From UHGV virus genome UHGV-0195737: a stretch of DNA of 58,116 bases. One strand, given 5' to 3'. The position numbers and the translations under genes are program-made. The stretch is from a virus. Under the pieces are notes generated by a model. It did no database searches. It was given only the letters and a program-made list of their open reading frames with translations, and was not told where the DNA came from. The first letter of the stretch is position 1; every line of letters starts with the position of its first letter. Below are positions 49,002 to 57,255 of the stretch, one piece after another.

Positions 49002-49133
49002 CCTACCTACCAGTCTGTAAATCGAAAATTAGCCACCTGATAGCGTTTCTGACGCAATAAGACACTGCAACCTGTGCAAACGGGTTACGCGGTGGGATTT
49101 TTGCGTTGTAGCGCGTTTTACGGAGAAATTACA

Positions 49134-49904
49134 ATGTCTGAATTAATGGTTTTTGATAACGTTAAAATGAATAGTATTGAAATTTCAGAGTTGGTTGGTA
49201 AGCGTCATGATAACGTAAAACGCACTATCGAGACGCTTGCTAATAATGGGATTATCCGACTTCCTCAAATTGAGGTTTTCGGAAAAATCAATAACTTAGG
49301 ATTGATTCGTGGCGTGGACGCTTACGTTTTTGAAGGGGAGGAAGGCAAGCGAGATAGTATTATTGTGGTCGCACAGCTTTGCCCTGAACTTACGGCGCGG
49401 ATCGTTGACCGCTGGCAGGAACTTGAAAACGCAGTCCGGCAAAATGCTGTTCCAAATTACGGTAACACACAGATCAGTAATGTTCTTGCTTTTGCTGAAA
49501 CGGCGGGCCGAATGCTGAATATGAGTAATTCAGGTAAGTTAGGTATGCTACAGAAGATTGAGAAGGAATATAATATTCCTCCTATCCTTCCGCATTACGC
49601 TATTGACGCTCCTTCTGATGCTGTGGACGGATCAAGCCGCGTGACCAAATCACTGACAGCATTGTTAGAAGAAAATAACGTTGGCATGACTGCGCGTGAA
49701 GTTTACCCAATCCTTGAACGCAAAGGCATTGTCGATCGCAAGTATCGTAAAGCAAAATGCGGAGAAAAAAGATTCTGGAATGTAACTGTGTATGGTCTGC
49801 GATACGGAAAAAATATAACCAACCCATCTAATCAGAGAGAAACACAGCCGCATTTTTATGAATCAAGATTTAAAGAGTTATTGAATATTATTTTTTCTGA
49901 ATGA
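49134..49904 (+). CDS. Rha-family phage regulatory protein
   Basis: N-terminal SELVGKRHDNVKRTIETL matches Rha family signature; SD GGAGAA. Confidence 0.6.
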   Translation: MSELMVFDNVKMNSIEISELVGKRHDNVKRTIETLANNGIIRLPQIEVFGKINNLGLIRGVDAYVFEGEEGKRDSIIVVAQLCPELTARIVDRWQELENAVRQNAVPNYGNTQISNVLAFAETAGRMLNMSNSGKLGMLQKIEKEYNIPPILPHYAIDAPSDAVDGSSRVTKSLTALLEENNVGMTAREVYPILERKGIVDRKYRKAKCGEKRFWNVTVYGLRYGKNITNPSNQRETQPHFYESRFKELLNIIFSE

Positions 49905-49937: not shown

Positions 49938-51056
49938 ATGTCACAGAGAAAGATCAGCGATGAGCAACTGATCGCTGAGTACAACAAGGGGAAGACTTAC
50001 AAGCAAATAGCCGAAGAATATGGAATGGCAAAACGCAACGTCGAACGCCTGGGCGCACGGCTGGCTAAGCGCGGTTTAATATCCACGCGCCGCGCTCCTG
50101 GCTTCGGTGTTAACGGTGAATCATTGCTCGTTGATAAGGATGGCAATGTAATCATGCGCTGGATTAAAACGGCCCGTGACCGTGAGGAAATGGAAAGGCT
50201 AACGCAAGCGGCTTGCGACGCATTCACGGAAGAAATACCACGCGCGGAGGTAGTGCCAGTGCCGGAAATTGATTTCCAAAAAAGCCTGGCCCTTTATCCG
50301 GTATTCGATCTGCATATCGGGGCGCTTGCACATAAAGCTGAATGCGGAGAAAGCTACGACACCGGGATCGCCGAACGCGTGCTAAATGACTTCTTCGACT
50401 ACGCGGTAGGCGCTGCACCAACGTCTGAGAAGGCTGTTTTGCTTCTCGGAGGCGATCTACTTCACTCTGACGGGATGATCCCGGTTACACCGACAAGCGG
50501 GCATATTCTTGATCAGGATAGCCGCTACGCAAAACTTGTTTATGTGGCGATCCGGTCGGTCCGGCGTGCGGTGGGGAAAATGTTGTTAAACCATAAGGAC
50601 GTCGAGATACAAGTGTTATCCGGCAATCACGATCAGTCGGGGATGATCTGGCTACGTGCGGCGCTGGCGGCTTTTTACGAGGATGAACCGCGCGTAACGG
50701 TTGATGTATCACCTGCTATCGTCCACCACACGCAGTACGGTAAAACATTCCTTGCTTATCATCACGGGCACACCATCAAAAAACCCGAAAATTTGTTAGC
50801 TGCCTGTGTTTCTGACTGGCGGGAGGACTTCGGCAAGTCGGCGGCGGTTTACGCTCACACGGGGCATCTGCATCATCAATCTGTCGTAGAAACATCATTA
50901 GGGATCGTTGAGCACCACGGCACGTTAGCGGGTAAAGACGCTTATTCAACGAATGGCGGTTGGCGGTCGCGGCGGCTGGCGGCGGTGATAATTTACAGCC
51001 CGGATTATGGGGAAATCGGGCGCTTTGTTTATTACCCTGAATATTCCATTTTGTAA
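49938..51056 (+). CDS. HTH - metallophosphoesterase fusion protein
   Basis: N-terminal HTH (YKQIAEEYGMAKRNVERL); calcineurin-like phosphoesterase motifs DLH, GGDLLH, GNHD, HHGH, GHLHH. Confidence 0.55.
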   Translation: MSQRKISDEQLIAEYNKGKTYKQIAEEYGMAKRNVERLGARLAKRGLISTRRAPGFGVNGESLLVDKDGNVIMRWIKTARDREEMERLTQAACDAFTEEIPRAEVVPVPEIDFQKSLALYPVFDLHIGALAHKAECGESYDTGIAERVLNDFFDYAVGAAPTSEKAVLLLGGDLLHSDGMIPVTPTSGHILDQDSRYAKLVYVAIRSVRRAVGKMLLNHKDVEIQVLSGNHDQSGMIWLRAALAAFYEDEPRVTVDVSPAIVHHTQYGKTFLAYHHGHTIKKPENLLAACVSDWREDFGKSAAVYAHTGHLHHQSVVETSLGIVEHHGTLAGKDAYSTNGGWRSRRLAAVIIYSPDYGEIGRFVYYPEYSIL

Positions 51057-51074
51057 ACCGGAGGCGACGCCATA

Positions 51075-52496
51075 ATGATAACTGAGCAAGTAAACTCATT
51101 GCGGCAAGAAAGGGAATCGGCGGTTATTGGTGGACTTCTGTTAGGCGGGCTTACCCCTAACGCGCAAGATGTTCTTGCTACACTCGATCCAGAAGTTTTC
51201 ACTATTCCGCTATACAGACGGGCGTTCGAAATTATCCGGGCGCAAGCCAGAAACAGAAATCTCATCGATGCGTTATTGGTTGGCGATGAAATCGGTAACG
51301 AAAACTTCATACCGCTGATGCAAACGGCGCGATCGTGTCCTTCGGCTGCCAACCTGAAAGGGTATGCCGAATTATTGCAGGAAGAACACCAGCGGCGGCA
51401 AATGTTGGACCTGATAGAAGATATTCGCTACAAACTGGAAACGGGTACGCTTGAAGTTGTCAGGGAAACGATGAAAGATTTTGATTCCCGGTATTCAAAA
51501 TTAAAAGTAACGAAAGGCGAAATCCTCCCGGTGCTGTTGCGCGACGCGGTGCAGGAATACACGGAAGTGCTAAGTAAGCGCATGGAATGCGGCGTAAACT
51601 CCGACAACATCAAAACAGGGATTGACCCACTCGACGAAATGTTAGGCGGCATTAACGCCACTGATTTAGTGCTCATCGCCGGACGTCCGGGATCTGGTAA
51701 ATCGGCGTTAGCGTTGGCAATTGCCCGCGCGGCGGCTGAGAGACCTTACCCTGGCGGCGAAGGAAATCGTGTCGGTGTTTTGCTCTTTACGCTTGAAATG
51801 TCGCTCGATCAAATAACTGAGCGGGCCATCGCTGGTGCGGGGAATTTATCAACGGATTGTTTGCGTAATCCGGTAAAACTTGACGATGAGGGGTGGGCGC
51901 ACGTCGCCCAGGGTATGAGCGCCCTCGCCGATCTCGACGTATGGATTGTTGACGCATCGCAGTTAACGGTCGAGGAAATACGCGCCACCACCGAACGTAT
52001 GAAACAGGACCATCCCAACCTGGGAATGGTAATGATTGACTACATCGGGTTAATGAAGCTGGCTAAGGCCGAACGTCATGATCTTGCCGTAGGGCAATTG
52101 TCGCGGTCATTGAAAATGATGGCGAAGGAATTGCGCGTACCAGTGGCGGCGCTGGCGCAATTATCCCGCCGCGTTGAGGAACGACCGAACAAGCGCCCGA
52201 ACAATTCTGATCTGCGTGATTCCGGTAATCTGGAGCAAGATGCGGACCGGATCATCATGGTCTACCGTGATGGCTACTACAACGAACAATCTGTTGCCCG
52301 CGAATATATGGAGATCATCGTTTCAAAAAACCGTCACGGGAAAACGGGCACTGTTTACCAGCGGTTTGACGACAACGGCAATATCTTACCATGTGACCAG
52401 GCCCGCGCGGCGTCCGCTTGCATCCAGTCAATGCAACAACGTCCGGCGGCAAGCCGATTCTCCCCACGAAACAACCAGAATAACTCATCCTTTTAA
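51075..52496 (+). CDS. dnaB: Replicative DNA helicase (DnaB family)
   Basis: Walker A GRPGSGKS, Walker B LGMVMIDY; 473 aa. Confidence 0.85.
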   Translation: MITEQVNSLRQERESAVIGGLLLGGLTPNAQDVLATLDPEVFTIPLYRRAFEIIRAQARNRNLIDALLVGDEIGNENFIPLMQTARSCPSAANLKGYAELLQEEHQRRQMLDLIEDIRYKLETGTLEVVRETMKDFDSRYSKLKVTKGEILPVLLRDAVQEYTEVLSKRMECGVNSDNIKTGIDPLDEMLGGINATDLVLIAGRPGSGKSALALAIARAAAERPYPGGEGNRVGVLLFTLEMSLDQITERAIAGAGNLSTDCLRNPVKLDDEGWAHVAQGMSALADLDVWIVDASQLTVEEIRATTERMKQDHPNLGMVMIDYIGLMKLAKAERHDLAVGQLSRSLKMMAKELRVPVAALAQLSRRVEERPNKRPNNSDLRDSGNLEQDADRIIMVYRDGYYNEQSVAREYMEIIVSKNRHGKTGTVYQRFDDNGNILPCDQARAASACIQSMQQRPAASRFSPRNNQNNSSF

Positions 52497-52575
52497 TTAA
52501 CTTGAGTAAACGGCTTACCGGAAAGCTGACCGCTTTCTGGTGGCTGTTTTCGCGCTTAAATCGAGGCTAAAAACA

Positions 52576-53103
52576 ATGAAAACCACTTATAAAACACAAA
52601 TAGCGAATTTTTTACAGGATGCTACTGTCGCGGGTGAAGCAACAATCATTAAATCTATTCCAGGTCCTGAAATCGAGATTGTTAACAGTTTGCGTGATAT
52701 GGTTTCTGACGGCGCTATTATTCCTGTGGAAATGGGAGGACCACGGTTATCATATTGCTTGAAGTCAGTGCGCGAAATGGCAATAAAAAAAATCATGCCT
52801 TTATTTCTGAATAGTAGCGATTATTTTTCTGCTGAGGATGTTAAGAAGAAATTAAAACTCGAAATAAAACAGAGAAAAATCTGTCGGGTTTTAAAGATGT
52901 TAGGTAGTGAAAATTTATTAACTGTCAATAAATTTGACGGGAAATATTTTTTTAGATCAGCTCGCTTCTATGGTTGTTCAAGTCCTATCGTATTTGAATT
53001 TAACAGCCGCCTGAACGAATACCGGAAAAATAACGGCTTGTTACCGGATAAACCAGCATTTGAAATCGAAAAACTTAACGGTGAAACGGGGTTAGAATTA
53101 TGA
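52576..53103 (+). CDS. Hypothetical protein (AT-rich accessory gene)
   Basis: 176 aa from first ATG; markedly AT-rich relative to flanking replication genes. Confidence 0.4.
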   Translation: MKTTYKTQIANFLQDATVAGEATIIKSIPGPEIEIVNSLRDMVSDGAIIPVEMGGPRLSYCLKSVREMAIKKIMPLFLNSSDYFSAEDVKKKLKLEIKQRKICRVLKMLGSENLLTVNKFDGKYFFRSARFYGCSSPIVFEFNSRLNEYRKNNGLLPDKPAFEIEKLNGETGLEL

Positions 53104-53306
53104 GACGGGTAATCTTTTATTCAGTTGAAACATTCATTGATGAATCACATTTCCGTTTTCCATGCAATTCTTGTGGCGCAATGGTTTATACACCTCCGCT
53201 AATGCGCAAATACAGACACGTAAGATTTAGCTGGGCTTTCGTTCCAATTCGTGAGGCGTTGCGGGCGCTGCGTGGGGAATTAAGAAACACAATGCGGATT
53301 GTGTAA
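53100..53306 (+). CDS. Hypothetical small protein
   Basis: 68 aa; start overlaps upstream stop. Confidence 0.35.
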   Translation: MRRVIFYSVETFIDESHFRFPCNSCGAMVYTPPLMRKYRHVRFSWAFVPIREALRALRGELRNTMRIV

Positions 53307-53315
53307 GGGGGAGTT

Positions 53316-53513
53316 ATGAACAAGGATTTAGAATTGACCGTGGAGGATTTAAGCACTATTGCGGAATACAAGCGCCGCGGTGATCCTGATATGCCTGTTA
53401 CGGTTGATATGGAATATTTAAAAGGCGCTTTTATGACAAGCTCGCGGCTAATTTCTTTGCAGGCGATTATGTACGCGCGCGCACAATGGAAAAATAGCAA
53501 CGGTGTATTATGA
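53316..53513 (+). CDS. Hypothetical small protein
   Basis: 65 aa; SD GGGGAG. Confidence 0.4.
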   Translation: MNKDLELTVEDLSTIAEYKRRGDPDMPVTVDMEYLKGAFMTSSRLISLQAIMYARAQWKNSNGVL

Positions 53514-53941
53514 GGCAAATTAGATTTGAGATAGTTAACGACGCCGTGAAAGAAAATGCTATCAGGCAGATAAGGGAGATCCAGCCTGATAGCAAAAGCC
53601 CGCTGATAATTACCATTCAGGAGAAAACCCGCTCACTGAGTCAAAATGCGTTGTTATGGGCGCTACTAACCGATGTTAGCGATCAGGTTAACTGGTACGG
53701 CAAGAAGCTGTCGCCGGAAGACTGGAAAGCAGTATTTACTGCCGGGCTTAAGAAATATGGCGTCGTCCCCAATCTGGATAAATCCGGCTTCGTTGTATTG
53801 GGAACATCCACCAGTCGAATGAGTAAATCAGAATTCAGCGAACTAATCGAATTGATTTATTCGTTCGGCGCGGAGCATGGCGTTCAGTGGTCAGGTGATA
53901 CGAAATTAAACGAGGAATTTATAAAACGCTGGGGGCAATAA
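53510..53941 (+). CDS. ninB: NinB/Orf-family recombination mediator
   Basis: RSLSQNALLWALLTDVSDQ and SPEDWK motifs typical of NinB. Confidence 0.65.
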   Translation: MRQIRFEIVNDAVKENAIRQIREIQPDSKSPLIITIQEKTRSLSQNALLWALLTDVSDQVNWYGKKLSPEDWKAVFTAGLKKYGVVPNLDKSGFVVLGTSTSRMSKSEFSELIELIYSFGAEHGVQWSGDTKLNEEFIKRWGQ

Positions 53942-54117
53942 TGGTTAGTTATTACAAAGCTAAGGTTACTGGTATCCTGTACAAAATAGAAAACCATACA
54001 GTTTATTATTTTAGTAGACCAGCAAATGAATGGCGTGAATGTTTTTCTAAGTTTAAATCTGAAATAGAAAACAACCCTGAATATTATATCAAGGTTGACA
54101 ATGTAACCGTGGCGTGA
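53941..54117 (+). CDS. Hypothetical small protein (58 aa)
   Basis: ATG overlaps NinB stop; not in track. Confidence 0.3.
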   Translation: MVSYYKAKVTGILYKIENHTVYYFSRPANEWRECFSKFKSEIENNPEYYIKVDNVTVA

Positions 54118-54131
54118 CTGAGGATAAGCAA

Positions 54132-54788
54132 ATGAATAAATCAAAAGTAATCGGTATAATTAGCCATCGCACTAACCCTGAATGCTACCCATCGTTCGAA
54201 GTATCGACATGCAGGGAAGAATATAATTTTGGATCATGCTATTTAGTTGGTGTCCGCGCTGATACTCGCGGCACTTATTCTGTTATGGCGGCAAGCTGGA
54301 AGTTTGATAAATATGCCAATTTATCTAATAAAGATGATGATGGCATGAATAAAGAAAGTGAAATCATTGACGAATTAATCGAAGATGAGCGGCATGATTG
54401 CGATACGCCAGAAGTTACGGAATGGATGGCAGGAGAAAAGCCGCCATGCGGAGTATGGCTTGAGCTTCTAGATCCTGTCGATGGTCGGAAATATGTTATT
54501 CTGAAATACAAGTATATAAGTGATCGCCTTGCTCTTTTTGTAGAAATGGATGCGCCTGATTTTGAACAAGCCGGGGAATGGAAGCCTTTCGCTCATAAGT
54601 TGTATGTAGATCCGAAAGAAAAAATACTGGCTGAAATTGCGTTTGCACTTGCCACTAAGGTTATCGGTGAAGACGCAGCAAAAGAAATTAATTTTAACCG
54701 CGACAATGAGTTTTCACACGATTATCGCAACATGGCGCAAGCTATTATTGATGGATGTATCGGACACGTCGAATACACGGGGAAATGA
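54132..54788 (+). CDS. Hypothetical protein near int
   Basis: 218 aa from ATG with SD GAGGA; acidic. Confidence 0.4.
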   Translation: MNKSKVIGIISHRTNPECYPSFEVSTCREEYNFGSCYLVGVRADTRGTYSVMAASWKFDKYANLSNKDDDGMNKESEIIDELIEDERHDCDTPEVTEWMAGEKPPCGVWLELLDPVDGRKYVILKYKYISDRLALFVEMDAPDFEQAGEWKPFAHKLYVDPKEKILAEIAFALATKVIGEDAAKEINFNRDNEFSHDYRNMAQAIIDGCIGHVEYTGK

Positions 54789-55027
54789 ATATGATCAGCG
54801 ATAAGGAAACGACGATACTAATCACGACGGAAAATATCTGTAAGATGTTAGGTGGCATTAGCCGGGGAACGTTTTACAAGTGGCGTAAAGCGTGGAAGAA
54901 CAGCGGAACACCATTCCCCGCGCCCGCTGCTCTCCCCTTCCCCGGATGTAACCACCTTTACCGCTATCAGGACGTTATGCGGTTTTTTCATGAGCGCGGC
55001 TTAATCTCAACCAGGGATAAAACATAA
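54785..55027 (+). CDS. xis: Excisionase / AlpA-like DNA-binding protein
   Basis: ICKMLGGISRGTFYKWRK HTH typical of Xis/AlpA; convergent overlap with int. Confidence 0.6.
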   Translation: MNMISDKETTILITTENICKMLGGISRGTFYKWRKAWKNSGTPFPAPAALPFPGCNHLYRYQDVMRFFHERGLISTRDKT

Positions 55028-56181
55028 TCAGCCCACTTATTCATCGCTTCTTTTTGCTCATCAATGTAGTCATATTTATCATAAACGGCTAACACGCCTG
55101 ATAGGGCGTGGCCTAATACTTTCTCCGCTATGTGCGGTGCTACTCCTATAGCTGCTAAATGAGTGCGGCATGTCCGGCGCAAGTCATGACATGACCATGC
55201 CTCACAATTCATTATGCTGTAAACGGATAGCGCCGCTTTCTTGATTACGGTTTTACACGCTGGCTTATCTTCCTGTGATCTCGCAGGGGGTAACAGGTGC
55301 TCTTTATCATGCGCCGCCATAATTTCACGCAATAAAGAGACGGCGTAATCAGATAATCCCCTTCTAATCAGTCGCCGGGTTTTTGATATTTCAGCCGGGA
55401 CCGTCCACACACCATTGTCTAAATCAAAATGCGATCTCTTTGCATCCCTCAATTCAATGACACGGCAACCAGTAAGTAACAGCAATTTAAGCGCGTACTT
55501 ATGCAGGCTGTAGATCCTCGACCTTTCCACGGCACGCCAGAACTCCACAATTTCATCCGTTGATAAATACCGCTCACCGACGCCGGGCGTGTTTCCAATA
55601 TCAATAACGCGAACATTTTTTATTGACTGGCTTGTAACCATATCTCGCCTGATGGCGTTATCAATTACGATCTTCATTCGCTTTAACACTATTCCGGCCT
55701 GTACGGGGTAGCCCGCCTCCGTTATCTTCGAAAATATATCCATCCATTGACGCGTCGTTATATCGTCAACGATATAAAAACCGTAGTCTTTCACTACATA
55801 GCGTTGTAGAAAACTTTTAATATCCCTGTAGTTAACAAGTTTTTTGACGTTGGTCATTGAGAGATAATCATCAATCACATCACTGATCGTCTTCTTCTCC
55901 TTCTCCCCTTCTATCCGCTGCTTCAATACTGTTGCCGGATTCTTCCCCTCCGCGAGTATCTCCTTGCATTCTGCCACCGCCGCGCGGGCTTCTTTTAGCG
56001 ACATGATGCCATAGTCGCCCAGCTTCAAGCGCACTGGTTTACCATTGAAACGATAGCGGTACTGGAATGTAATTTTCCCCTTCGCACTTACCCTGGCTGA
56101 TAGTCCGCCAGCGTCCGCCAGTTCATCCGGCCCGGTGTACGCCTTCCCGGCGATGGCTCGTAATTTCGTATCAGACAACAT
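54988..56181 (-). CDS. int: Tyrosine integrase (phage integrase family, arm-binding N-domain)
   Basis: C-terminal HDLRRT, LGH and Tyr motif; N-terminal arm-binding-like domain. Confidence 0.85.
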   Translation of the reverse strand: MLSDTKLRAIAGKAYTGPDELADAGGLSARVSAKGKITFQYRYRFNGKPVRLKLGDYGIMSLKEARAAVAECKEILAEGKNPATVLKQRIEGEKEKKTISDVIDDYLSMTNVKKLVNYRDIKSFLQRYVVKDYGFYIVDDITTRQWMDIFSKITEAGYPVQAGIVLKRMKIVIDNAIRRDMVTSQSIKNVRVIDIGNTPGVGERYLSTDEIVEFWRAVERSRIYSLHKYALKLLLLTGCRVIELRDAKRSHFDLDNGVWTVPAEISKTRRLIRRGLSDYAVSLLREIMAAHDKEHLLPPARSQEDKPACKTVIKKAALSVYSIMNCEAWSCHDLRRTCRTHLAAIGVAPHIAEKVLGHALSGVLAVYDKYDYIDEQKEAMNKWADYVLSLVEIKPRS

Positions 56182-56195
56182 GTTTCCCCCTTCGT

Positions 56196-56217
56196 TTTGG
56201 TCACGTTTTGGTACACA
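56196..56217. repeat. Right copy of imperfect 22-bp direct repeat (putative att-associated)
   Basis: TTTGGTCACGTTTTGGTACACA, 15 bp from int start. Confidence 0.3.
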
Positions 56218-56329
56218 CTTTTCGTTAAACGGATATTAACAGCAATGTACGTAAGAAGACACACTACGGCTAAAAAATAATCTAAGCTGTTGTTTTTGAT
56301 AGGGATTAGTGAACAGGGATGAACGCGAA

Positions 56330-56503
56330 TGAACGCGAATAAACAAGGCGAGATCCTTTTTGGCGAAGTGGTATCAGCAGCGGCAGACGCACGGGTATTT
56401 GTCGAAGGCCGCTGGCAGTTTGATGATGATAAGCTCAATACGTTGCATCATTTAGGTGCTGGCACGTTTGTTACCAGTGGTAAGCGAGTTACCGCGGGCT
56501 AAA
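56330..56503 (+). CDS. Hypothetical small protein (flank)
   Basis: 57-aa ORF MNANKQGEILFGEVV...; outside prophage. Confidence 0.25.
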
Positions 56504-56567: not shown

Positions 56568-57034
56568 TCACGATTGCATATTTTTAGTGAAGATTAATTT
56601 ATCCTCACCAACATCATAGTAATTGCGTATTATCGCCTCATTGATAAAGCCCTGTTTTGTATAAAATGCGCGGGCGGCACTAAAATCGATATGGCTGGCG
56701 GTCTCTACTAATAGTAGTCTTGCCTGTTTAATTGTGAGCTCTTTTCTATTTCGTTAATCAGCAGATGTCTCACTCCCTGGCGCTGATGGGAAGGACTGAT
56801 CCAGAGCATTAATAAATTTCAGACATCATTTGTCATCATTTCAGAAGCACAGTAGGCAATCCCTGCCAGTCCCAAGTGTTCTGCACTAAACCATAAATCG
56901 GCAGATTGACCTGAGAAATAATGTGTTAGTGTTTTTTGTACATGATGAAGGCCATCTTGATCAAATTGATCCCTGTCAAGCAGCATATCCATTAATGGTT
57001 CAACATCTGAAGGTTTGACTGGTCGTATAAACAT
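56568..57034 (-). pseudogene. GNAT-family acetyltransferase, frameshifted
   Basis: N-terminal fragment (track ORF 56819-57034) and C-terminal fragment with ARAFYTKQGF motif in a different frame. Confidence 0.45.
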
Positions 57035-57111
57035 GGAACTCCTTATTTATTGATGAATATTTGAAAATTGTTTGCATGGAACGCGGTTAATCTGAATTTT
57101 CAGCGGAAGTT

Positions 57112-57255
57112 TCACTCAAAGGCTTTATTAATCCGCTCCTTATGTCCTTTTACAGCAAATAAATAATTACCTCCCTGTTTTTGTATCTTCTCTGCAATAT
57201 CTTTCTGGCAACCCATCGCATCAGTTGTGATAATTTCACCTTTAATATCCAACAT
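57112..57255 (-). pseudogene. ISAs1-family (H-repeat-associated) transposase remnant
   Basis: 48-aa fragment [27 protein letters not shown] matches conserved ISAs1 transposase core. Confidence 0.5.

Follow-up and report, generated by a model that had tools for sequence, protein, structure and literature searches.

Coliphages of the mEpimmI group, among them mEp021, have been described and were reported to be as common as lambdoid phages in human gut isolates; Gp17 antitermination and a nutL site were reported for the group in the same study (PMC11893012). In mEp021 (gp03-gp08) and in the other mEpimmI coliphages (MH706966, PP180001-PP180005, PP925836), the helicase gene is followed by genes for proteins of 175-185, 68 and 65 aa, a NinB gene, a small ORF, a gene for a protein of about 218 aa, an HTH gene and a convergent integrase gene. 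No mention of the genes of this block was found in the supplements of PMC11893012.

We have analysed the same block in a stretch of 58,116 nt (UHGV virus genome UHGV-0195737), referred to here as the window, which by sequence comparison is an mEp021-like temperate siphophage of the mEpimmI group integrated in E. coli near yddH. Nucleotide identity is 81-90% to mEp phages, MagusPhagus and 35 E. coli prophages, and E. coli chromosome sequence begins at about position 56356. The window differs from the mEpimmI coliphages in carrying the minority, AT-rich 175-aa allele of the first gene after the helicase gene (orf176), in the domain combination of its orf218 and in lacking the methyltransferase insertion of mEp021, and it adjoins yddH whereas the published integration sites are ydaM, abgT and mppA (PMC11893012). 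We consider it likely that positions 52576-54788 belong to the early, replication-side operon of this mEp021-like phage and form its distal portion.

Layout and conservation of the block

Table 1. Features between dnaB and the integrase gene, with window positions and supporting matches
Feature	Position	Strand	Evidence or remark
dnaB, replicative DnaB-type helicase	51075..52496	+	Pfam DnaB_C 1.2e-76, DnaB N-terminal domain 5.5e-12; upstream boundary of block
Stem-loop (18 bp) followed by UUUUCG	52508..52549	+	Terminator-like match; in the 79-nt dnaB-orf176 spacer
orf176 variable cassette, two predicted tandem winged-helix domains (aa 1-62, 74-128)	52576..52992	+	AF2 model, Foldseek; 35% GC
orf176 nearly invariant C-terminal tail	52993..53103	+	LNEYRKNNGLLPDKPxFEIEKLNGETGLEL; mosaic junction here
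orf68, small basic protein, pI 10.8	53100..53306	+	Start overlaps orf176 stop (ATGA)
orf65, small protein	53316..53513	+	phrog_21123 (unknown function) 1.3e-8
ninB, NinB/Orf recombination mediator, 143 aa	53510..53941	+	PF05772, phrog_72
orf58, small AT-rich gene, 32% GC	53941..54117	+	Start overlaps ninB stop
orf218, acidic three-module protein	54132..54788	+	AF2 model, pLDDT 75; alignment and entropy profile
xis, excisionase-like HTH gene, last of operon	54785..55027	+	HTH_23 4.7e-7; phrog_4745 1.9e-11; phrog_1553 (excisionase) 4.3e-6
int, tyrosine integrase, transcribed inward from prophage end	54988..56181	-	Phage_integrase 7e-19; Arm-DNA-bind_3 3.7e-18

The gene order dnaB, orf176, orf68, orf65, ninB, orf58, orf218, xis was kept in all 50 related loci, irrespective of the type of integrase and of where the phage is integrated; the window integrase itself shares no more than 63% identity with those of these relatives. 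In mEp021 the homologues of orf176 and orf218 are gp08 and gp03. Most of the loci (41 of 50) were fetched via orf218, so that the universal presence of this gene is partly by construction; it was also found in all nine of the loci retrieved by DNA similarity. Identity to the relatives is 90-97% for dnaB, 68-100% for orf68 (present in 50 of 50, with differences mostly at third codon positions) and 51-100% for orf58 (present in 50 of 50 and annotated as a CDS in RefSeq relatives), and orf65 is likewise present in every locus; profile searches gave no family match for orf68 or orf58. True insertions occur in only four of the 50 loci. The single recurrent site of the block lies between orf65 and ninB, with 588-740 bp inserted in loci L005, L006 and L019, the inserts being a DNA methyltransferase gene (mEp021), a BRO-N gene (strain MS 21-1) and about 730 bp (L019); the insertion in L040 sits between ninB and orf218. 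An antisense ORF of 110 aa at 53186-53518 is interrupted by stops in 17 of its 63 matches in relatives and is therefore not regarded as a gene, and there were no Rfam family matches anywhere in the window.

The gene products following orf176 had been described at first as small unknowns. Small genes are indeed present there, but the 143-aa product is identifiable from its sequence as NinB/Orf: it matches PF05772 at 159.6 bits (cutoff 23.8; E 4.5e-47) over profile positions 4-131 of 131 and phrog_72 at 1.3e-44, shares 54% of its residues with lambda NinB in an alignment of 142 aa (E 2e-56), and is 96-100% identical in 49 of the 50 relatives. In lambda, NinB/Orf helps to load the recombinase on SSB-coated single-stranded DNA.

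The genes of the block share the strand of the replication genes, and from one to the next the stop and start codons either overlap or are separated by 10-15 nt. The most likely start of xis, at 54785, is placed so that the xis start and the orf218 stop overlap as ATGA. The xis product scores 22.5 bits against NCBIfam Xis_Gifsy_1, under the 60-bit cutoff, and the convergent xis and int genes overlap by 40 bp at their 3' ends. A consensus scan gave 20 promoter-like sites in the region against 25.3 expected from shuffles, among them a weak site at 54059-54087 upstream of orf218, and no promoter/terminator pair bracketing any gene of the block. Because the genes overlap or nearly abut and lack evident transcription signals of their own, we read them as the tail of the early operon and not as cargo. 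To judge from the gene arrangement, the block would be transcribed from an early promoter during lytic growth or induction, with translation possibly coupled down to xis.

Such transcription would have to pass the stem-loop that follows dnaB. The predicted RNA fold has a free energy of -28.3 kcal/mol (z = -4.4), a stability reached by none of 200 shuffles; the U-run behind the stem-loop is of only 4 nt. The dnaB-orf176 spacer is 91% identical over 41 relatives (dS of flanking genes about 0.5), and in the alignment 96.5% of cells stay paired. No double compensatory changes were seen across relatives, the hairpin being too conserved to show covariation. The element is terminator-like, and the Nus-dependent, N-like antiterminator of the phage (Gp17 in mEp021) probably reads through it.

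Alleles of orf176 and orf218

The preliminary description had singled out the 176-aa gene as AT-rich compared with its neighbours, and this is borne out: GC is 36.0% and GC3 32.4% in orf176, against 51.5% and 55.5% in dnaB and 45.4% in ninB. At the 0.07th percentile, orf176 is the lowest of all 528-bp segments of the prophage (mean 47.3%, SD 3.8%), in which the only stretches below 37% GC are 52461-53259 and 53841-54429, the latter comprising orf58 (32.2%) and the start of orf218. Among the relatives, 175-aa alleles of orf176 have 32-36% GC and 185-aa alleles 43-46%; the AT-rich allele is in the minority (10 of 50) and the commoner class is not AT-rich. AT-richness is thus a property of one orf176 allele family, not of the gene slot, and low GC beside an integrase gene is not in itself proof of cargo: here it marks one allele of a gene that the lineage carries throughout. 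We also considered, and rejected, a replication origin within this AT-rich gene, comparable to that in lambda O, since the commoner allele is not AT-rich and a search of orf176 found no iteron family, just scattered two-copy repeats and one 12-nt palindrome.

The orf176 product is predicted to be a tandem winged-helix protein. Its AF2 model (pLDDT 81) retrieves tandem winged-helix proteins with Foldseek, namely ESCRT-II, SelB, RPC34 and ScpB, at E values of about 4e-4. Residues 4-154 match positions 2-153 of 162 of PHROG 1687 (E 2.2e-5), which is matched by 13 of 15 alleles (best E 2.7e-10) and whose label, 'MarR family transcription regulator', is an annotation; some alleles are named 'Lrp/AsnC family' by PGAP. 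There were no matches of orf176 in Pfam at E <= 0.01 or in NCBIfam at E <= 1, and across the alleles the search for curated MarR or Lrp/AsnC models gave only sub-threshold wHTH matches (FUR, HTH_24, O-methyltransferase dimerisation). A sequence search of solved structures returned nothing below E 0.07 for either orf176 or orf218.

The winged-helix part falls into three deeply diverged allele classes, with identities of 97-100%, about 70% and 40-48%, yet the 30-aa tail is near-identical across alleles that are just about 30% identical upstream of it, and over 36 codons 7-15 nucleotides but only 2-4 amino acids differ. In megablast, similarity to the mEp phages sets in at position 52993, the first of the tail. 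From this mosaic we conclude that the winged-helix cassette is exchanged among allele classes by recombination, with crossovers in the conserved spacer ahead of orf176 and in the nearly invariant tail that the gene itself encodes. The family is under purifying selection. No pair has a dN/dS above 1 in the winged-helix cassette, and the sole value above 1 (1.96) came from one pair in the 36-codon tail.

The product of orf218 is, as had been noted, an acidic protein next to xis: its pI is 4.77, with 41 Asp and Glu against 26 Lys and Arg, and its gene abuts xis. A variable beta domain (aa 8-60) is followed by an invariant acidic disordered linker (aa 64-93), a hypervariable beta domain (aa 109-157) and a conserved helical domain (aa 161-206), and the two variable domains are modelled as small beta barrels. 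Three N-terminal and seven middle domain types occur in differing combinations among strains, which by sequence have been reshuffled independently. Selection on orf218 is purifying, with dN/dS of 0.09-0.30 compared with 0.03 for ninB and 0.05 for dnaB. The dS of the middle domain, about 1.8, far exceeds the roughly 0.5 of flanking genes, and we therefore regard the domain types as old alleles in a young backbone. No pair had a dN/dS above 1 in either variable domain of orf218, so that positive selection in orf218 or orf176 is not demonstrated. Among the relatives, neither the orf218 nor the orf176 alleles were seen to vary together with the type of integrase.

A fold search of the PDB with the orf218 model gave nothing below 1e-3, only low-TM barrels of Tudor, SH3, KOW or WYL type, and the ten BFVD matches at E <= 1e-3, all with TM <= 0.3, bear uninformative names, being phage proteins that are unnamed or uncharacterised, together with a 'host shutoff protein' (TM 0.21). 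The motif W..GE.PP.GVWL is reminiscent of DUF551. Assignment of orf218 as Ea22/Ead or as DUF551-like was nevertheless rejected: neither it nor 34 family members matched any Pfam family, PF13935 included, at E <= 1, whereas lambda Ea22 itself scores 1.1e-28 on PF13935, and an hhalign comparison with lambda Ea22 was negative. Both families are confined to the mEp021-like phage lineage. The orf176 profile found 28 clusters in a set of 5.8 billion proteins, nearly all of them close family and all the named ones from E. coli; an orf218 HMM found nine matches among 1.84 billion cluster representatives, all in the same family; and no relative was detected among 185,579 species-representative genomes.

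Possible roles of the block genes

Our best guess is that orf176 and orf218 encode polymorphic partner-binding proteins of lytic growth. The orf176 product could act as an adaptor, its exchangeable winged-helix module recognising a nucleic-acid or protein target while the invariant tail docks on a conserved partner, and the orf218 product could serve as a scaffold, displaying a pair of binding domains that can be exchanged. That the allele classes have persisted so long suggests frequency-dependent selection exerted by variable factors of the host or of competitor phages, pointing to counter-defence or anti-exclusion and away from lysogenic conversion; alternatively, the deep alleles could derive from unsampled relatives. 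A more specific version, which we offer tentatively and hold to be doubtful, is that the two genes form a lineage-restricted cassette pair under long-term balancing selection, a counter-defence module of a new family in which orf176 would be Ren-like. The 30-aa tail of orf176 and the acidic linker and helical domain of orf218 would then provide invariant docking, homologous recombination within the invariant flanks would swap the recognition domains, and the population would maintain a reserve of different specificities with which to meet variable host defences or prophage exclusion factors. If the pattern of allele cassettes does reflect an arms race, orf176 and orf218 are reasonable candidates in searches for counter-defence proteins.

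It is unlikely that the genes are instead core replication or recombination factors, with orf176 loading or regulating the helicase, or binding the origin, and with its tail docking on the DnaB encoded next to it. The preliminary description, which favoured accessory genes, would have been overturned by a demonstration that these were conserved core replication accessory factors; conservation was seen in 50 of 50 loci, but a replication role is not thereby shown. Such a role would accord with the place of orf176 as first gene after dnaB in all relatives, with the nearly invariant tail next to a DnaB that is itself highly conserved, with the presence of a recombination protein, NinB, in the block, and with a tandem winged-helix architecture, which is of a kind found in ScpB and in plasmid Rep initiators. 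It is opposed by the lack of similarity between orf176 and DnaC, lambda P or other loaders, by the Lin1244/DnaD-type initiator that the phage already has upstream, and by the composition data, the AT-rich gene having no iteron-like repeats and the commoner alleles not being AT-rich. Moreover, three winged-helix classes alongside near-identical DnaB and replication genes would not be expected of a protein specific for the origin, unless the origin itself varied in step.

That orf176 is a functional analogue of Ren, the anti-exclusion protein of lambda, with an allelic diversity that tracks different exclusion systems, we regard as quite unlikely. The gene shares the map position of ren (dnaB-orf176-orf68-orf65-ninB compared with lambda O-P-ren-ninB), and phrog_142, 'Ren-like exclusion protein', is weakly matched (best E 3.5e-4) by 6 of 15 alleles, those of 185 aa. 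This weak match, however, is limited to the second of the winged-helix domains, whose fold is very common; the window's own allele has no phrog_142 match at E <= 0.1, and an hhalign profile comparison with lambda Ren gave a probability of 0.2%.

The reading to which the preliminary description points, that these are horizontally acquired morons, defence or lysogenic-conversion genes in an int-proximal hotspot and that the prophage expresses them to its host's benefit, is very unlikely: the low GC of orf176, orf58 and orf218, the restriction of the AT-rich orf176 allele to a fifth of the relatives, which is consistent with import, and the insertions accepted between orf65 and ninB speak for it, but every gene is present in all relatives independently of integrase type and site, the genes run in the direction of the early operon, with which they are probably coupled in translation, and none is bracketed by a promoter/terminator pair, possible donor homologues outside the phage lineage were not found, and PADLOC-DB v2 gave no match at E <= 1 for orf176, orf68, orf65, orf58 or orf218. 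What survives of that description is the deviant composition, the signature of horizontal exchange and the occasional insertions; the hotspot does not, the six genes being fixed, with no presence/absence polymorphism and no evident promoters of their own.

Comparison with known phage systems

In lambda, the positional counterparts of the block are the nin and ea regions. The nin region (ren, ninA-ninI, downstream of O and P) is likewise a run of small, packed genes after the replication genes and includes NinB/Orf; its genes are largely non-essential and are reached by N-type antitermination. In contrast to the nin region, the run in the window ends in xis and a convergent int and not in Q, and apart from NinB none of its genes is homologous to a nin gene. 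The likeness to the exo-xis ('ea') region of lambda and P22 lies in a diverse gene directly upstream of xis at the end of the early operon. That gene, orf218, is no member of Ea22/Ead (PF13935), with an hhalign probability of 0.3% against lambda Ea22, and its product is predicted to consist of two small beta barrels and a helical domain, and not of a coiled coil.

Outside phages of this kind, the two consecutive winged-helix domains predicted for orf176 are shared with ESCRT-II Vps22/25, the SelB C-terminus, RPC34 and ScpB, but with TM-scores of only 0.3-0.47 and identities of 10-14%, and neither these proteins nor MarR/Lrp-type families have a counterpart of the nearly invariant tail. The present annotation adds to the described block the identification of NinB, domain maps for two lineage-specific protein families and the pinning of the insertion site to orf65/ninB. 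With phage morons and int-proximal cargo the block has in common its deviant base composition (found for orf176 in the 175-aa classes only), its nearness to int and its horizontal exchange; it differs from them in that exchange is not by gain and loss of genes but allele for allele, in a fixed slot.

Composition and gene order downstream of dnaB

The region comes from a temperate siphophage, one of the mEp021-like 'mEpimmI' phages, which are a set of Nus-dependent, non-lambdoid coliphages (PMC11893012), and positions 52400-55100 share 81-90% nucleotide identity with seven mEpimmI phages. The preliminary description had placed AT-rich accessory genes, at an int-proximal cargo hotspot, between dnaB and the xis and int genes. 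The conspicuous AT-richness of orf176 proved correct and far beyond chance: in our composition check its GC content was 36.0% (GC3 32.4%), as against 51.5% for dnaB and a prophage mean of 47.3% (SD 3.8%; windows matched to the length of orf176), making it the lowest-GC window of its length in the prophage (0.07th percentile). GC dips a second time across orf58 (32.2% GC) and into the first part of orf218. The acidic 218-aa protein is likewise real (pI 4.77), and orf68, orf65 and orf58 are present as the small unknowns said to follow orf176, but the 143-aa gene is not an unknown: it is NinB/Orf (PF05772 match, E 4.5e-47; 54% identity to lambda NinB). The annotated ATG of orf176 is the credible start, since a GAGG motif precedes it by 8-9 nt and relatives begin the gene at the same codon; for xis, the most likely start overlaps the orf218 stop codon (ATGA).

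Features of the region (window coordinates; aa, residues of the protein)
Feature	Position or sequence	Strand	Description
Variable slot	49074-49904		between Lin1244-type initiator and 372-aa metallophosphoesterase
dnaB-orf176 spacer	52497-52575		79 nt
Stem-loop	52508-52549		in the spacer; 18 bp, then UUUUCG
orf176	52576-53103		annotated ATG at 52576
orf176 mosaic junction	52993		DNA level
Block genes			predicted order: orf176, orf68, orf65, 143-aa gene, orf58, orf218, HTH gene, convergent tyrosine integrase
orf218 N module	aa 8-60		variable beta domain
orf218 linker	DDDGMNKESEIIDELIEDERHDC		invariant, acidic, disordered
orf218 middle module	aa 109-157		hypervariable beta domain, 1.4-2.1 bits entropy per site
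orf218 C module	aa 161-206		conserved helical domain
xis-like gene	54785 (most likely start)	plus	
Tyrosine integrase (int)	from 54988	minus	convergent with preceding HTH (xis-like) gene
xis-like/int overlap	54988-55027		3' ends, 40 bp
Host flank ORF fragments	56819-57255		short

The window genes were placed by tblastn in each of 50 related loci, nine from GenBank/RefSeq and 41 from IMG/VR. The IMG/VR loci were retrieved via orf218, so its presence is tested independently only by the nine loci retrieved through DNA similarity, in all of which (9/9) it was found. The order dnaB-orf176-orf68-orf65-ninB-orf58-orf218 was kept in 50/50 loci, whatever the integrase type or integration site, and insertions occurred in only four: the orf65/ninB gap holds 588-740 bp extra in mEp021 (a DNA methyltransferase), strain MS 21-1 (a BRO-N gene) and locus L019, and locus L040 (IMGVR_UViG_2737471838_000004) has an insertion of ~480 bp between ninB and orf218. 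The NinB of L040 is divergent (55% identity versus 96-100% in all others), and this locus is a rare case of replacement inside an otherwise fixed block.

Because the order is fixed, the genes lie on the replication-gene strand with stop and start codons overlapping or 10-15 nt apart, promoter-like sites across the block show no excess (20 found versus 25 expected) and no block gene matched a PADLOC defence model, we read the block as the downstream end of the early operon on the replication side, not as a presence/absence cargo island. The rival reading as true cargo, which we consider unlikely, can point to the deviant GC content, the allele exchange and the few insertions, and the hotspot claim holds only in part; the invariant gene order argues against it. 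The slot between the initiator and metallophosphoesterase genes is genuinely variable in content, with a Rha-like 276-aa gene in the window, a zinc-ribbon protein, BRO-family protein or HNH endonuclease in relatives and no annotated gene in strain LSU61, and in this it resembles a cargo site more closely than the block does.

Allele exchange in orf176 and orf218

The AlphaFold2 model of orf176, built on 15 alleles, predicts two winged-helix domains in tandem (aa 1-62, aa 74-128; pLDDT 81) and then a helical tail of low confidence. Its Foldseek matches are generic tandem winged-helix proteins (ESCRT-II, SelB, RPC34, ScpB; E ~4e-4, TM 0.3-0.47); orf176 falls within PHROG 1687, which carries the label 'MarR family', and it reached none of the curated regulator models of Pfam or NCBIfam. 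Three allele classes are ~30% identical over the winged-helix part, and the final 30 residues (LNEYRKNNGLLPDKPxFEIEKLNGETGLEL) are nearly constant across them. Since the last 36 codons show 7-15 nucleotide but only 2-4 amino-acid differences, the tail is kept by purifying selection and not by recent shared ancestry alone. With mosaic junctions at 52993 and in the conserved dnaB-orf176 spacer, the winged-helix part behaves as a cassette. AT-richness in orf176 is confined to the 175-aa classes (32-36% GC), which were seen in 10/50 loci and include the allele of the window; GC in the 185-aa class is 43-46%.

In orf218, four modules were agreed by alignment, entropy profile and AlphaFold2 model (pLDDT 75). 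At a 60% identity threshold, 120 clusters yielded three N-domain and seven middle-domain types in many combinations, and thus the domains are shuffled by intragenic recombination. Values of dN/dS were 0.21 (N domain), 0.09 (linker), 0.30 (middle) and 0.17 (C domain), compared with 0.03 for ninB and 0.05 for dnaB, and no pair exceeded 1 in either variable domain; dS was ~1.8 in the middle domain versus ~0.5 in the backbone. Like orf176, orf218 is under purifying selection, and is a functional coding sequence whose alleles are much older than their surroundings. Its fold gave no significant PDB match, only low-TM Tudor/SH3/KOW/WYL-like barrels, and its BFVD matches are phage proteins with uninformative names. 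An Ea22/Ead identity was rejected by family-profile search and hhalign comparison.

Both families are confined to the mEpimmI lineage. That of orf176 comprises 28 clusters in 5.8 billion proteins, every source-named one from E. coli, and the seven mEpimmI phages are the sole carriers in a set of 50,697 phage records; the orf218 profile gave nine matches, all from its own family, among 1.84 billion cluster representatives, and none was found in 185,579 species-representative genomes.

Prophage end and integrase

Positions 51000-56300 match prophages in 35/5,426 complete E. coli genomes, and from ~56356 the sequence is E. coli chromosome adjoining yddH (99.5-99.8% identity); the prophage therefore ends just past the integrase. 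This flank is strongly AT-rich (27-37% GC from ~57000), and its short ORF fragments lie where E. coli genomes have an ISAs1-family transposase remnant annotated beside yddH. The window integrase shares no more than 63% identity with those of the 50 relatives. Since the published mEpimmI sites are ydaM (dgcM), abgT and mppA (PMC11893012), the integrase and its yddH site look like an additional type for the group. The convergent xis-like/int layout is likewise present in relatives, and readthrough from the early operon could exert antisense control of the integrase. An IMG/VR viral contig (L030, IMGVR_UViG_3300045988_076772; 54,578 bp) encodes proteins 100% identical to those of the window from metallophosphoesterase through orf218, and is therefore the same phage recovered from a metagenome as a viral genome.

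Proposed expression and roles, and known counterparts

The dnaB-orf176 spacer is 91% identical over 41 relatives, more conserved than the synonymous sites of its flanking genes (divergence ~0.5). Its stem-loop folds at -28.3 kcal/mol (z = -4.4) with pairing retained in 96.5% of cells; compensatory changes were not seen among relatives, the stem being too conserved to show any. Because antitermination in mEpimmI phages depends on an N-like protein, Gp17, together with nut sites, one of which, nutL, lies upstream of the repressor gene (PMC11893012), we infer that the predicted hairpin is a terminator or pause site gating the block, possibly one of several early-operon terminators overridden by the phage N-like protein. 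The block would then be expressed during lytic growth via antitermination. We hypothesize that orf176 is an adaptor whose recognition module is swappable and whose invariant tail serves for docking, that orf218 is a scaffold bearing two swappable binding domains, and that variable host or rival-phage factors uphold the allele repertoire.

Alternatively, though with lower probability, orf176 may be a replication-accessory factor; it follows dnaB directly on the same strand. A Ren-like anti-exclusion role is suggested by map position, which lambda Ren shares, and by weak phrog_142 matches in 6/15 alleles, but the window allele had no such match and hhalign against Ren gave a probability of 0.2%, so the similarity is not significant.

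Published phage genomes already contain the block (mEp021 gp03-gp08), its products listed as hypothetical proteins without names. The window adds another example, one that carries a minority set of alleles, and the allele-cassette architecture is a modest point. In map position the block resembles lambda's nin and ea regions.
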